64,000 nt of DNA from Eledone cirrhosa (lineage: Eukaryota), in assembly GCA_964016885.1 (NCBI GenBank), contig OZ024745.1, positions 45,260,001 through 45,324,000 of the forward strand. Reading direction: 5' to 3'. A model generated the notes under the pieces. It worked only from the letters and a program-made list of their open reading frames with translations. It did not search any database and was not told where the DNA came from. Positions 1,312 to 45,586 of this stretch are shown piece after piece; position 1 is the stretch's first letter; every line of letters begins with the position of its first letter. The translations under genes and the position numbers were made by a program.

Positions 1312-2759
1312 AATAAACGAAGCTAAATTTTAAACATTTGACTTTTTATTTTACTTTATTTTACATTACTCCGGAGTAACCAAACCAACCTGCGCACTTC
1401 GTCGAGTGCTCCAGCCTGCATACTGAGGTGTTGGTATACAACCAACATACACTCAAAATCTCCCTCTCTCTCTCTCTATATATATATACACACACACACA
1501 TATATATATATATATATATATATATATATATATATATATATGCACACACACTCATGCATACAAACAGAATGCACGCGTATGCGTGATTTTTGTAGAAAAT
1601 ACACTTTCTTTATACTGTTTTTAATAGCATTAGCAACCATAATGACGGTTGCAACAGCAATAAAGTACAGACATTTAGACATTTGACATTTCAGAGATGA
1701 TTTACACCACATGGTTATCCTTGTAAATTACTACATTATTTTGAAAGAAAATAATGTTAATAAAAATTATCATAATTCCCCTCCTAATCATCATCACCAT
1801 CTCCATTACCACGGCGACTATAGCGATGGCCACCCTCTTCATCACTACCAGCACCATGTTCTTCGCTGTCGAGTTCGTTGTCGTTGTCATCATCATCATC
1901 ATCATTGATATATAATGCTGTTTTTTTTTTTTAATGTCATACAAGCTTTAAATGCTATACCAGATACACTTCTGTGCTCTTCAGGCATGTGCAGTATTTT
2001 CTTTTTATATTTTAAGATATATTTGGTTTACTGCTAATTGACAGCTCCGTGAAGTTTGGGTCGCCTTTGTGGTGCTGATTTTAATGTTATAGTTATTGTT
2101 GTTGTTGTTGACGTTCCGAAGTCAATCTGATCGAGTAGTCTCATGCTCTGAAAGGCCTGACAGGCGTCAACAACTCACTCTTGTGCACCTTTTATTTCGA
2201 AGGAATAGAGTGAGATTTGAGGATGGTTGCTCTGCTATATCTAGAAGGTCAAACGACCAGTAGTAGCTTAATCGCTTGTGGGCCGTATAGTTTGGTGAGC
2301 TATGTGGCTCAGCCTGGCGGACACCAGACTTCATTGGAGTCCTAACAACCACAACGGAAGAAGAATCTCAGCAATATTTACGCAGCAAAACTTCACGAAC
2401 AGAGCAGAGGAGGAAAGAGTTGAAGCAGATATGGTATGGTTTAGTAGTGTGTTAGTATATGTTGCTTTGACCCAGGGTCTTCTTGAATCTAGCATACCCT
2501 GCATCAAAAACAATTCTAATCCTCACTACCCTAGGATTACATTATATAATTTTTCATTCTTTTTAATTTGCTGGAGGTTTGGCTGCTGTATCTAGCATAT
2601 CGAATGACCATTACAACAGTCCTATTTGTAAAGATCGATCTGTGTGAGTGTAGATATATTTTATTTTTATCAGGCTGAGGATAACTGAATTAGAATACAG
2701 TTTCTTTTTGCATAACTTACAGTTTATTACAACCCAGTTAGAGGTTATGATTCGGATAT

Positions 2760-3650
2760 ATATTGTATTCATAGCTATTATCTTATTTAGTTCTTTGCTA
2801 TTAGTTTGACCTTTCTATAGAACTCTTCTCAGTCTTTTTCATTTCTTTATGTTGAATCTTTCAGTCTAAATTAAGATTCTAACGAATTTGTTTCTTTTTA
2901 AGGAGGCTTTGGCACATATGTCCAACTTCTTATCCATTTAAATACCTGTTCTGAAACATTTTGGTTGCGATACAGTTTTTAGAAGTCCTACTACCAAATT
3001 TTGTATCTTGTATAACATTTAAAAATAATCAGTATATTTGGTTTATAGTTTCTACAAAGAATTTGCATTCTTGGGTGATTTGATTCAACAAAATTATCAA
3101 ACTCCGAACAAGTGAAACGAATAGAAAAAAATATCTAATGAAGGTAAAAATCGTTATATATTTTCTATATGAGGGTGTAATTTGTGTTTTTCATATTTTG
3201 ATATTGGTGTTGCTGTGTTTATAAACAGCTTCTCCAATAAACAAATGTGTTAGCTTGTCGAAAATTGATCGGTTTTCAATTATATTTTCATTTTCTTGCT
3301 ATTTACCAAAAACTGTTTTTATAAATATATACAACTATGAAATATTATTTCCCCTTCTGACAAGATATTATCATTCAAATAAACACATGTCTTGTTTATA
3401 AATACATATGCTGGAGCTTTGATTATTATTTGGAAGCAAGTTACCATCCGGTAAATTTGGTGGTTTCTGGCAAGTTTGTTATAGGGAAAGAATATAGTTT
3501 TCTCCGTCTAGAAACTTATCAGATTTTGTTAAATTCTAGATTCATTAGTATTCCGTTGTAGACCATTGCAAGGAATTTAAGTTGTCACTGGGAACTTTCA
3601 GTTGTTAGCAATAATATACATGCTTGTCAATTCCTTTCATTTTACTGTAG
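2760..3650 (-). pseudogene. Highly decayed R4/Dong-like LINE RT remnant
   Basis: Frameshifted minus-strand remnants resembling NYRPITCL (~3440-3470), EEQKGC/GCKDQLLIN (~3300-3370) and FGLDKCAK (~2905-2940). Confidence 0.4.
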
Positions 3651-3689
3651 AGCAATGATTGTGATATTTTCAATTTTGAATCCATGAAT

Positions 3690-4042
3690 ACAGCACGGTC
3701 TAATGGTTAACGAATTTACTTCACAATCATTAGGTCTCGGGTTCGATTCCACTGCATGACTTCGTGGGCAAGTGTAGTTTATCATAGCCTCAGGTCGACC
3801 CCTGCTTTTTTGAGAGAAATTGGATAGATGAGAAATTGTTTGGAAGCTTGTCGGATGAACTATAACTATCTATAATTCTAAGGACCAGCCATGACGCCCA
3901 ATGTGTCACGCTGAATTTCCTTGAGAATTACGTTAAAGGTACACGTGTCAGTGGAATGCTCAGCCACTTACACGTTGATTTCATAAGTGGGCTGTTCTGT
4001 TGGTCGAACAACTGGACCAGTCATCGTCGAAAACGATGGAAG
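3690..4042 (+). mobile_element. tRNA-derived SINE (long family)
   Basis: A-box-like ggtctaatggtt and B-box GGTTCGATTCC. The body gtgtcacgctgaat...ctcagccacttacacg recurs at 16350-16490(-), 19080-19170 and 47120-47370. Confidence 0.65.
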
Positions 4043-4157
4043 ATAATTCAATTGTCTATTCACATTCCTTCATTATTCATTTGTATGTTTATTATACCCA
4101 GTGTCTGCTTAGTGTGTCTATAATTCTGTATTGCCTTTAGTTTTTGTATAACTTCTA

Positions 4158-4375
4158 GAGCGGTGTAGTGGCAGAATCGGCAGAGCGTTGGACAACATGC
4201 TTTGCGGCATATAGTTACAGCTTTTTACGTCTGATTTCAAATCCTGCAAAGGTTAACTTTGCCTTTCATTCTTACGCATCGATAAAATAAATTACCAGTA
4301 ACGTATTAGGGTAGATTTAATCTACTTTTCTCTTTGAATTTCTGGCCTTGTCTATAAAGTAGAAACAATTATTTA
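4158..4375 (+). mobile_element. tRNA-derived SINE (dominant short family)
   Basis: TGGCAGAATCGG A-box, TTCAAATCC B-box, core aactttgcctttcat...gataaaataaa...ccag, tail ctggccttgt...agaaacaatta. Confidence 0.75.
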
Positions 4376-4929
4376 TTTATCTTCTAGAGCCGTGGTGTGG
4401 CAATATCAGTAGAACGTCGGAGAATATCATTGGTATAGCTTCTGCCATCACATATTTATACTAATGTTTAGTAACATGGCGGGTGGGAATCTTTTATTTC
4501 TTTGTTGATGTGGTTTCATATATCCTCTTTTCAGTTCTTTTGGTTATGGGGGTTGTAAAGATTTATTTTTATATACCTAATTTCTATATCTAAAGCTTGC
4601 TGAGTGTATTATGTATTAATTTGTTCAACATATGAACACTGTAGAGTTGTATTGTATTTGCTTATTATTTTAAAAGTTATTTATTATTAGCTTGTATATG
4701 CTTCAGTTTGTTATGAGCGGATTTAAGAGTAGTGTTTTGTTGTTGTAAAAGGGTTGTAGTGAATCGCTTATATTTAAAAGGAAAGCTATATTCCTGGCAT
4801 GCGAACGATAAGTATTCCTGCCTACATATTTGGTTTATAGCTTATTTAATTGGATACCTGAAGCGAAAACAGTGAGATATCAGACATGAAATCTACACCC
4901 TGAGCAAAAGCTCTTTTTGAGTAGATCCA

Positions 4930-44207: not shown

Positions 44208-44319
44208 GTTTCTGATTTAGGAGCAAGACCACAATAGACTGAAAGTTGTGCCAGTATTATGAAGGAACCATAGAAAGATGTTGGCATAAAAAAAAGAGCA
44301 AAAGTTCCTCGAACCTGAC

Positions 44320-44502
44320 AAAGCGTCCATACTCTGGCACATACCAACCAATCCACACAGACAAGGAACGAAAATCAAGTCTATTGTTATCAACAGGAAA
44401 AGAAGTGTCTCCTAATCGAAGTATCAGTTTCAACAAATAATAATGTAACGTTCAAAGAAATTGAGCCCATTAAATATAAAGATGTAGTAATTAAGATAAC
44501 AT
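44320..44502 (+). pseudogene. R4/Dong-like RLE fragment
   Basis: ILWH.P.IHTDKE...QEKKCLLIEVSVSTNNNVTFKEIEPIKYKDVVIKI. Confidence 0.55.
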
Positions 44503-44977
44503 TCCAGGTGCCAAACACTCTCGTTCAGCGCATGTTACAAGACTACGGCTCGGTCAAATAGACGGACCACGGAAAGAGGTATGGCATGAACAGTGACAAG
44601 ACAATAACTGTTTACCACCATTCTTGTTCAGGAATCTCAGTATGTGTTTTAGCCTTAGCGGGTGTCTGCGCATCTTCAACAACTCAGCATATGCCTGAAG
44701 AGCAACAAAATCAACGTGGGCTGCACAACAACAATAACATCAACAATAGTAGACAGACACGTAGTTAGACGTAGGTACGTCAATACTCATCTTTTTCCAT
44801 TTTTTAGAGGGTTCTAAACCCCACCATCAGGCTAAAATTTCTTTAGTAAAAAATACGGCGAAAGCTTCTATTTACATTTTCAAACTCGCTCGCTGTTTCA
44901 AAAAAAAAAAAAAAAATACTTACTTATAGATAAATATATATATATATATATATATATATATATATATATATATATAT

Positions 44978-45285
44978 AATGGAAAAATTTGAACAGGGAC
45001 AAAACAGAGAAGCAGTACAACGAATGTTTATTAATTTCACGCTCTGGAGAGTGGGGTGTTGGTGGGGGACGACGTTTCGGGCATAAGCCCTTCCTCAGGT
45101 GAGAAGTGTGTGGGAACAGAGTTCAAAGGGTGTGTAGGGGAGTGGTGGAGAGACATATAGCGAAAGGAAACGGTGCGAATGAAAAAATAAAAAAATAAAG
45201 ATAAAAATAAAAATAAAGCATGATCAAAATACAAGGAATGAAATAAATTTAAATATAAAAGCATGATCAAAATAAACTGAAATTA
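44978..45285 (-). mobile_element. PLE-like 3' fragment with HHR-like core (45066-45102)
   Basis: Minus strand CTGAGGA-A-GGGC-TTAT-GCCC-GAAA-CGTC, then AATAAA and (TA)n; stem I is weak (2 bp). Confidence 0.5.
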
Positions 45286-45355
45286 TATATATATATATAT
45301 ATATATATATATATATATATATATATATATATATATATATATATATATATATATA

Positions 45356-45586
45356 TAATATAATAAATTTGAAGACTAAAATCCAAAGAGAGCTCGATAA
45401 GGATAAATATATATCAAATATATAAGAACCGTAGAGCAAATATTTATTAAAATAACAGATTAAAGTTTAAGCAAAGAATCGCTGCTTTCACCCTTAACGG
45501 GATCTTCTGAGAGTTTCAGAAGATCCCGTTAAGGGTGAAAGCAGCGATTCTTTGCTTAAACTTTAATCTGTTATTTTAATAAATAT
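45356..45586 (-). mobile_element. Family E element in fold-back form
   Basis: Perfect 71-bp arms 45440-45510/45516-45586, 5-nt spacer, tail 45356-45439; HHR-like CAGAAGA-TCCC-GTTAA-GGGT-GAAA. Confidence 0.88.

Follow-up and report, generated by a model that had tools for sequence, protein, structure and literature searches.

The window, a 64,000-nucleotide stretch of contig OZ024745.1 from Eledone cirrhosa, carries short inverted pLTR copies with one-sided tails from several families, together with a longer family B copy that retains part of its ORF (Table 1). By their diagnostic motifs, rather than by an RT tree, families A-E are Hydra-clade Penelope-like elements (PLEs). A single ORF, with the RT followed by a C-terminal GIY-YIG endonuclease, is found in the B remnant and in its relatives L161 and L168. 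The change from DKG to DKT is present in 7/7 loci linked to A, B, C, D and E, and RW[KR] in 6/7. The CxCX5C linker, CxxC and CxH occur in the B endonuclease and in loci L040, L043 and L168, in all four of which CCHH is absent by eye. Searched by pattern, the hammerhead shows both core halves in A and B and is partial in C, D and E, and insertion into (TA)n is confirmed. A Neptune assignment for B was rejected on the same kind of diagnostic motif. The RT proteins are 34-48% identical to the reference; Pfam returned no family over its cut-off among 14 ORFs of the window, that of the B RT included, and a comparison with solved structures returned no Hydra structure, the best match being a retron RT (E=0.02). 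Family C, with tandem units of about 3.54 kb, exceeds the 'generally short (<3 kb)' length given for the clade, which is a tendency rather than a strict criterion in the part of the source available (PMC8557442). In B, about 2 kb separate the end of the ORF from the end of the element. ORF-bearing masters exist for A, C, D and E, and their short copies are thus truncation products.

Table 1. Element copies and hairpins in the window (M1, first hairpin)
Feature	Position	Strand	Details
Family A, head-to-head inverted pLTR pair	897..1363	tail-less arm minus, tailed arm plus	flanked by (TA)n
Family A, hammerhead cores	1262-1298 and 1001-965	+ and -	core pattern
Family A, M1	1368..1407	+	ACTC 1368-71, upper stem, bulge TC 1402-03, GAGT 1404-07
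Family A, tail	1362..1477	+	tail to about 1461, CT-type repeat 1460-1477, then (TA)n
Family B, 3' pLTR of main copy	9807..10086	-	tail-less end on (TA)n; hammerhead core 9912-9870
Family B, Hydra-clade ORF, 5'-truncated	11902..13588	-	RT, C-terminal GIY-YIG endonuclease, CxCX5C linker; frameshift and stop
Family B, inverted pLTR and tail	13533..13903	+	pLTR 13533-13808
Family B, M1	13814-13841	+	ACTC, bulge TT 13836-37, AAGT (private G>A)
Family C, short inverted pair and 80-nt tail	15289..15481	+	pair 15289-15405; M1 15411-15434, bulge TT 15429-30
Family E, tail, second copy	21226..21271	+	hairpin 3' half decayed (GAAC)
Additional member	21826..22069	+	inverted tail-less arm about 21826-21984 (minus), tail; M1 21992-22016, bulge TA
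Family D, inverted pair and tail	29366..30175	-	M1 29435-29415: GCTC, bulge TA 29420-19, GAGC
Family E, tail, third copy	37424..37469	-	hairpin 3' half decayed (GACC)
Family C, copy	39039..39232	-	M1 39112-39089
Family E, inverted pair and tail	45363..45586	-	pair 45440-45586; M1 45437-45392, bulge TC 45397-96
Family C, copy	45622..45825	+	M1 45754-45777
Family C, copy	51318..51511	+	M1 51440-51463
Family G, tailed copy	51560..51690	-	M1 51621-51603: ACTC, bulge TT, GAGC
F, diverged inverted pair and tail	56743..56930	+	probable decayed M1 56863-56888, GAAT variant

The first-pass annotation had pointed to RCTC lying 2-6 nt past the end of the tail-less arm, followed by a partly complementary (G/A)AGYNC. 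All 11 motif words that it quoted are in place, and the gap is as described (4 nt in A, 5 in B, 5 in C, 6 in D and 2 in E, counted from the final base that the two arms have in common). The downstream half exists but is better written U-H-G-A-G-Y, its terminal 'NC' being dispensable; the B word AAGTGC at 13838 is present, but its G>A change is private to the window copy, and the 14 B relatives with the hairpin read GAGTGC. Three further sites had been listed as weaker matches. The one at 51560-51690 is in fact a full member, on the minus strand; F is indeed weak, a decayed or mis-anchored member with its ACTC (56863) 13 nt from the arm end, and no further copy of it was found among the loci examined; the one at 45041-45052 is no member at all and lies antisense to the hammerhead core of its own element (45098-45075, minus). 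The member at 21992-22016 had been overlooked.

The RCTC motif proves to be one half of a small bulged hairpin, an RNA element of 25-45 nt. The bulged helix consists of RCUC, then an upper stem that is variable but covaries, a bulge of 2 nt reading U(U/C/A), and GAGY-RC. In a comparison of registers, with the upper stem not used in selecting the sequences, the 2-nt bulge was best, with 19, 18 and 17 of 24 rows paired at upper positions 1-3 against 3-16 in other registers, and the first base of the bulge was U in 19/24 rows when this was unforced. RNAalifold yields the identical helix unprompted. Both sides of the upper stem change together (62 such changes against 24.4 in shuffles; 0/500 shuffles reached this number) and pairing stands at 91% in the correct register, against 23-54% in slid ones. 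The spacer between the motif halves varies from 6 to 102 nt, with the stem covarying, and on the sense strand G.U exceeds A.C (26 vs 12, p=0.03). The 3' flank is conserved as well, with T at the third flank position in 61/65. Among sequences folded singly, only D, E (roughly) and the second hairpin (M2) of B have this helix as their minimum-energy form; the window copies of A, B, C, F and G do not. An H-type pseudoknot considered for C was dropped, as one loop would be 0 nt. Rfam at gathering scores gave zero matches within the 64-kb window, and no published description of the motif was found in the literature searched.

The motif is real and lies above chance. To assess chance, tails were gathered blind to the motif from 10-kb stretches that lie outside the window, and one satellite locus (L138, 689 self-hits) was left out of all counts. 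Under the definition of the first-pass annotation (RCTC at 1-10 nt beyond the end of the arm, with RAGYNC downstream), 6/25 discovery families carry it (500 shuffles: mean 0.19, maximum 2), as do 4/11 families of a hold-out set that partly overlaps the discovery families (mean 0.06, maximum 1). The positional enrichment over shuffled tails on which the annotation had staked its proposal thus holds with many families (25 discovery, 11 hold-out). Among 21 families absent from the window, the full definition was found in 3, a count reached by 1/1000 shuffles, and the RCTC position alone in 8 (shuffle mean 1.75; 0/1000 reached it). The bulged hairpin, a definition devised on the discovery set, is present in 14/25 discovery and 5/11 hold-out tail families outside the window, against 0.4 and 0.2 in shuffles. 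In Hydra loci from other sources the motif lies upstream of the ORF in 30/35 families (shuffle mean 1.96), and 18 of the 35 have two hairpins, spaced by 55-72 nt and in one case by 132; since the descriptor used there required the U of the bulge and the GAG, the invariance of these bases in that set is partly built in. The ORF interior of the same loci gave the motif in 0/35, and the antisense control gave 9/35 matches, exceeding the shuffle maximum of 8.

Among the consensus sequences of Craig et al. (2021; PMC8557442) that could be inspected by eye, the hairpin is complete in Hydra-2_Amil and Hydra-2_Ajap, occurs twice in Hydra-1_Ajap, and appears as a variant in Hydra-1_Amil, Hydra-1_Obim and Hydra-1_Crog. 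Published coral and sea-cucumber consensus sequences are among these carriers. Viral contigs were searched for relatives and none were found. Three motif-less families tie to non-Hydra Penelope-like clades. The motif had been described as shared by unrelated families; tails do fail to align between families, but the carriers are all of the Hydra clade and, judged by sequence, it is to this clade that the motif belongs and not to all PLE/HHR families.

Elements with an ORF are ordered pLTR/hammerhead, M1, tail, M2, short leader and ATG, with M1 and M2 both within about 250 nt of the ATG and tails of 63-184 nt across families. The tail-less ends are found immediately ahead of M1, the tailed ones immediately ahead of M2. 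In read-through copies of B, M2 follows the end of the tail, and it was seen there by eye in five more families; for A, C and D it was predicted in advance past the tail end and then found. In this prospective test, which required RCTC alone, there were 326 matches in C, 50 in D and 7/11 in A, against 0 in reversed-pattern controls, and full M2 hairpins were seen in the C, D and A loci then read. The earlier idea of a conserved small stem that marks the arm end is therefore supported but underdescribed: the stem is bulged and covarying, there are two per element, and both ends are marked, the far end of the tail included.

Each family has two discrete genomic ends, at which RT would start; for family C over 22,000 tail ends are available. 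Counted on M1 ends, junctions are compatible with a position 5 nt before the stem in 71/97 placed copies and 18/19 families, while 26/97 placed ends break this rule and 63/160 tail-less ends are unplaceable. Junctions at M2 are close to the stem. Among direct 3' copies from other sources, 11/21 end 0-9 nt before a hairpin and 10/21 are not near a detected one. The ends fall 5' of the ATG, within AU-rich linkers; A/T occupies position -6 in 61/63, and 59/64 copies have 1-4 nt of TA microhomology at their ends. Inverted insertions have one tailed and one tail-less end in 58/61, where 30.5 would be expected if the ends were independent. The motif-less families keep to the same one-tail rule (10/10), which makes the rule independent of this particular hairpin. 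The putative hammerhead cleavage site was rejected as the 5' truncation point in A and C, as the arms reach beyond it.

Family A adds a repeat at the tail junction. (CT)n, with a length of (CT)1-31, follows 347/499 of its tail ends, the other 152 being direct (TA) ends; in family C, 19 tail ends have CT vs 22,291 direct. The CT-type repeat is absent from the three family A read-through masters read. This suggests template-dependent repeat synthesis at the M2 start site in family A, although masters with at least 5 CT units before M2 may exist. A systematic search for non-TA repeats at the junctions of other families returned only two (AAAT)n and one (ATT)n, in family E, so the effect is so far mainly one of family A.

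We consider it likely that the hairpin is one of two RNA signals that bind the RT-endonuclease and fix the start of TPRT about 5-9 nt 5' of the stem. With a start signal at each hairpin, the tail would be the distance between the two. The element's RT-endonuclease would grip the bulge in the RNA, and 1-4 AU bases of the linker, around -8 to -6, would pair with the nicked (TA)n target. RT beginning ahead of M1 would yield the tail-less end, and RT beginning ahead of M2 would copy the tail. Less firmly, a dimer of the protein, with each subunit on one hairpin of the same RNA (the dimer comes from the Poseidon paper only), may prime both target strands and so produce head-to-head arms of which one is tailed. 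The abundant short palindromes could come from transcripts initiated within the pLTR, and the full-length copies from tandem copies that are read through. It is also possible, although we would lean against it, that two TAR-like arginine-binding bulges seat a dimeric telomerase-related RT at two fixed starts of a single RNA, one for each target strand, and that reiteration of a short stretch of template by the hairpin-held RT builds microsatellites de novo, those of family A and perhaps some of the (TA)n.

Of the three roles in the original proposal (RT priming, endonuclease nick or template jump), RT priming appears to fit best, with the nick as a minority rival. In the latter account the motif would be a site for the GIY-YIG endonuclease in DNA, either duplex or a single-stranded cDNA hairpin, and a nick about 5 nt away would resolve one end or both of the insertion intermediate. 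The invariant core could be read in DNA, and TA-like junction microhomology is also expected if the endonuclease prefers TA sites; Craig et al. ascribe the tail to endonuclease-mediated resolution (PMC8557442, in the part available), and the Penelope endonuclease is reported to have needed the tail for recognition (PMC11167929, likewise in part). We nevertheless think it unlikely, given that recognition of a duplex has no need of a 6-102 nt spacer with a covarying stem, that the excess of G.U over A.C is on the sense strand, that a nick leaves the new (CT)n at the junction of A unexplained, and that the two tail boundaries of Poseidon are RT start sites (PMC11167929). Poseidon also weighs on the idea that transcripts are cut or terminated a few bases before M1 or M2, leaving an ordinary 3' end for RT to start from, since it starts internally on uncut RNA. 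A fixed short distance would suit a nuclease ruler and these elements already carry hammerhead cores, but a primer that pairs beside the stem is suggested by the short linker at -8 to -6, which is TA-compatible, and the rule of one end of each kind is harder to obtain from independently cut RNAs, and we give this processing signal little credence.

A role as protein operators near the start codon, in RNP assembly or translational autoregulation and with the nearby ends as a by-product, would suit two hairpins so close to the ATG and is compatible with the start-signal reading; as a sufficient explanation it is very improbable, because the junction is tied almost to the nucleotide to the M1 stem, and closely at M2, despite tails of 63-184 nt. 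Chance, or passive inheritance of a functionless sequence from a single ancestral pLTR, draws on the shared descent of carriers that all belong to one clade, but is largely refuted and hardly credible: the surrounding tails are unalignable between families whose RTs are 34-48% identical to the reference, and the upper stem has been altered on both sides yet still pairs.

The start-signal reading bears on the choice of RNA and of start site by Penelope-like RTs, which are the sister group of telomerase, and on the origin of the one-sided tail and inverted pLTR. To these questions the finding brings a defined RNA element, a distance rule and a two-copy layout. The hairpin can serve as a clade marker when very abundant short palindromic repeats are annotated, and it may offer a compact handle with which to program RT start. 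Telomerase-like repeat addition by a retrotransposon would, if true, be a source of the genome's microsatellites.

The elements described here have in common with the published Hydra clade (PMC8557442) DKT, RW[KR], the CxCX5C linker, CxxC/CxH, a putative pLTR hammerhead, (TA)n, inverted 5' copies and the one-sided tail. They differ in tail length (30-40 nt there vs 63-184 nt here), and neither the hairpin nor its second copy is described in the available text of that paper. Non-LTR retrozymes and non-autonomous PLE derivatives are likewise short hammerhead-bearing pLTR derivatives, but the short copies of A, C, D and E derive from ORF-bearing masters; the words 'tail', 'stem' and 'bulge' are absent from the retrozyme text as far as it was available (bioRxiv 10.64898/2026.07.22.740005). 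A biochemical parallel comes from Poseidon (Frangieh et al., 2024; PMC11167929): its purified protein initiates RT internally, at two positions between which the tail lies, it cleaves and extends both strands, and a dimer is predicted. For the Poseidon element PAc, RT needs the sequence lying 3' of its start sites, and hammerhead cleavage is dispensable. An AT-rich target is shared, and the two genomic ends of each family here may correspond to the two Poseidon starts. However, Poseidon belongs to another clade, and it starts in an 'AC-rich stem loop' inside the ORF that is reported as non-homologous to the target, whereas the ends here are upstream of the ATG and have TA microhomology; the accessible portion of the paper describes no repeated motif. 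The printed Poseidon template, inspected by eye, has a bulged hairpin of another build at about +121 to +147, just 3' of the start at +111-118.

The bulge itself resembles the arginine sandwich motif of HIV TAR and 7SK in local secondary structure, with a paired purine, a U-first bulge, G-C and A-U (A22, U23, G26 and A27-U38 in TAR; PMC6189040, in part). The hairpin here is circularly permuted relative to TAR, its loop closing the opposite side, and has a conserved 3' flank, and we claim no homology. An Arg/Lys-rich stretch before WFNPP in Hydra proteins is a candidate bulge-binding segment. Finally, in the sections available on telomerase RNA and the DRT10 ncRNA (PMC4993307, PMC12632851), related RTs also start internally, once the primer has formed a short pairing with an alignment segment on the 3' side; RNA structure positions the template, and repeats are added. 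Repeat addition here is suggested for one family only, and the geometry is reversed: the boundary stem of telomerase and DRT10 lies 5' of the template and halts synthesis, whereas the hairpin of these elements would lie 3' of the start, with synthesis proceeding into the element.

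The tail-start motif of the window's inverted tailed elements is real, and it is a new cis-element variant in a known class. The window has a G+C content of 33%, is rich in microsatellites and comes from an animal genome assembly of 3.0 Gb; self-comparison recovered the elements of the first-pass annotation: inverted repeats arranged head to head and bordered by (TA)n, with one arm extended by a tail. The motif words quoted there were all correct at their coordinates, as was the offset of RCTC, 2-6 nt past the end of the tail-less arm, but a further match claimed at 45041 proved to lie on the antisense strand of a hammerhead-bearing element. 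We gathered tails, blind to the motif, from 10-kb stretches outside the window (118 discovery and 40 hold-out), of which 63 of 112 and 14 of 22 anchors passed the quality filter, yielding 25 and 11 families. The comparison with shuffled tails that had been proposed bore the claim out: RCTC with a downstream RAGYNC was found in 6/25 discovery families (shuffle mean 0.19) and 4/11 hold-out families (shuffle mean 0.06). Among 21 families absent from the window, three carried this pair (matched by 1/1000 shuffles) and eight had RCTC at the expected position (0/1000 shuffles). A bulged-helix definition, derived from the discovery set itself, was present in 14/25 discovery, 5/11 hold-out and 10/21 window-absent families, against shuffle means of 0.43, 0.24 and 0.45.

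The motif is a bulged helix: RCUC, a variable upper stem, a 2-nt U(U/C/A) bulge and GAGY. When both halves were picked blind to the intervening bases, placing the 2-nt bulge on the 3' side gave the best pairing (19, 18 and 17 of 24 at upper positions 1-3; 3-16 in other registers). The 20 references taken from this genome have an outer A-U pair in eight cases and an outer G-C pair in ten; U.G and U-A are found as well at the third pair. In Hydra-clade relatives from other sources (91 loci on metagenome and genome contigs, forming 54 families at 70% identity) the upper stem is paired in 142/178 cells, compared with 93 under permutation. RNAalifold, applied to 50 motifs with interiors of 8-16 nt, recovers the same helix, with 62 two-sided changes against 24.4 in a control that ignores relatedness (0/500 controls). 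When the hairpin is folded alone the bulged helix is often not its most stable form, and it may therefore need its protein to adopt it.

The hairpin is both clade-wide and clade-limited. Families A-E can be assigned to the Hydra clade of Penelope-like elements by its diagnostic motifs (DKT, RW[KR], CxCX5C and CxxC/CxH, as given in the portion of PMC8557442 consulted), which are present in relatives of the B ORF and in ORFs linked to A, C, D and E. Within the 35 other-source families that have at least 100 nt of flank, the motif lies 5' of the ORF in 30, with two copies in 18; the controls gave 1.96 for shuffles, 0/35 for ORF interiors and 9/35 for the antisense strand. The nine top-scoring window hits of a covariance model built from other-source sequences only are D, four C copies, E, G, A and a member at 21992 that had gone unnoticed; the model missed B, F and the 45041 site. 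By eye, the published Hydra consensus file holds a complete motif in 3/6 elements (coral, sea cucumber) and a variant in the other three. Linked ORFs in this genome are of Hydra type for motif-bearing families; the endonucleases linked to three motif-less short-tail families (L081/L044, L137 and L139) are CCHH-type (Neptune-like), and the other motif-less families have no linked ORF. Several short-tail families without a hairpin share a TTTCAG/TTCGA-like word, and this class may have its own start signal. Hydra-clade animal retroelements also turn up in bacterial metagenome-assembled genomes (13 contigs), most likely through host contamination.

Tail-less ends stop just before the first hairpin. 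The linker resembles (TA)n, so each junction is an interval rather than a point; 71/97 placed ends (63/160 were unplaced) are compatible with a junction 5 nt ahead of the stem, as is the commonest junction in 18/19 families. Junction microhomology is 1-4 nt in 59/64 copies. Of 63 other-source motifs, 61 have A or T at position -6, and 11/21 direct 3' copies from other sources end 0-9 nt before one of the two hairpins. The second hairpin follows the tail end in full-length B copies, with an ATG ~45 nt later, and was seen by eye in read-through copies of five more families, some with an outer-pair mismatch. A genome query requiring nothing beyond the tail end and an RCTC at most 8 or 12 bases after it matched family C 326 times, D 50 times and A 11 times (reversed controls 0). 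One spacing is fixed in the 100 C matches listed and in all 50 D matches; seven of the 11 A matches are second hairpins and four are interrupted CT runs. In loci that were read, the second hairpin is complete in 5/5 (C), 4/5 (D) and 3/3 (A). The tail therefore appears to be the stretch between two hairpin-defined ends.

Coordinates of features in the window and at loci outside it (L-numbers)
Feature	Location	Strand	Details
CT repeat at A tail end	window 1460-1477		
Clustered 5' truncation point, A	window 1124-1137		
Clustered 5' truncation point, C	window 15330-15365		inside hammerhead
Hammerhead-bearing end of another family	window 44979-45100	minus	its (TA)n junction lacks a nearby hairpin
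Dispersed ~200-nt repeat	window 4156-4421, 15535-15790, 20067-20262, 32508-32672, 43119-43565, 53493-53949, 58956-59144		>10 copies, 65-95% identity, SINE-like in size
Tandem array	window 43660-44009		43-nt unit, 8 copies, 99%
Tandem array	window 61175-64000		24-nt unit, 117 copies, 92%
Short-tail class without hairpin	L081:4582, L042:6958, L105:2290, L098:8959, L147:8365		tails 27-60 nt
70-nt tail family	L179:2350, also L237	minus (L179)	imperfect hairpin look-alike; one copy in CCHH-type endonuclease locus
Tandem units of a short-tail family	L081:6005-7760, L179:3533-4463		~311 nt, retrozyme-like layout
Ends followed by (ATTT)n, (ATAA)n	L326:2609, L144:5444		match template bases at junction
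Four-unit head-to-tail family C arrays	G000:C1:91476611-91487263, C1:437200347-437210965		period ~3.54 kb
Hydra elements in bacterial metagenome-assembled genomes	L327-L339		

We consider it probable, from these sequence comparisons, that RNA hairpins seat the reverse transcriptase (RT). The principal alternative, an endonuclease site in DNA, is unlikely. Family A tail ends carry 1-31 CT units and then (TA)n (27 ends in a query-biased set), and all three A masters read (read-through, ORF-bearing full-length copies) have a single CT before the linker of the second hairpin (loci for the two observations: L001-L030, L350, L352, L353); none among the loci examined outside the window has at least five. 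An unbiased genome-wide count for A gave 347 ends with at least four CT units and 152 joined directly to TA, while family C, whose template lacks A's triplet at the junction, has 19 CT-type ends against 22,291 direct ones. In random DNA 134/9,904 TA-run sides follow a CT run, and two show the TA-CT-TA layout of a ready-made target. The repeat therefore appears to depend on the template rather than on the target, a pattern more in keeping with an RT start than with a nick; it is likely to be repeat synthesis at that start. Ends with (ATTT)n or (ATAA)n prompt the question of whether the RT also makes some of the flanking (TA)n.

An excess of G.U over A.C on the sense strand (26 versus 12, p=0.03) gives modest support for a role in RNA, again at the expense of a DNA site. 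An RNA-end processing signal is improbable. Even less credence is due to an operator to which the ends are incidental, a reading to be set beside the junction position shared by 18/19 families, and chance, beside the shuffle means, is hardly credible.

The two insertion ends are coupled: in motif-bearing families, 58/61 inverted insertions pair a tailed end with a tail-less one (30.5 expected if ends were independent), and 39/42 remain after one discovery insertion is dropped for each of 19 families defined from the random set. The one-tail rule also holds in 10/10 for motif-less families, the short-tail class included. Seating of the RT by hairpins could involve one RNA, with one protein subunit per hairpin, and two target strands; alternatively, first-strand priming may occur at the second hairpin, with resolution at the first afterwards. 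The 5' truncations of families C and A cluster tightly (in C, 50/69 at 131-150 nt before the second hairpin), and masters L340 and L353 start at the clustered points, which together suggest a transcription start inside the pLTR. Short palindromes would then be copies of the transcript's own leader. The four-unit family C arrays are candidate source loci for full-length copies.

Internal RT initiation and the tail are already known (PMC11167929, PMC8557442); the literature searched, with partial coverage, held no description of the hairpin or of its duplication, and neither the distance rule nor the one-of-each rule was found there. For Penelope, PMC2377424 describes transcripts that begin within the pLTR. 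According to PMC11167929, both strands are cut and extended by the Poseidon protein, for which a dimer is predicted; by analogy, a single RNA with a subunit on each hairpin is the simplest reading. The local structure of the hairpin matches the arginine sandwich of TAR/7SK in permuted form, so far as the sources covered describe it, and by this likeness an Arg/Lys-rich stretch before WFNPP in Hydra proteins is a candidate hairpin-binding part. Finally, the junction geometry fits a model in which the target primer would pair with 2-3 linker bases at about -8 to -6, much as primers pair with the alignment segment of telomerase (PMC4993307).
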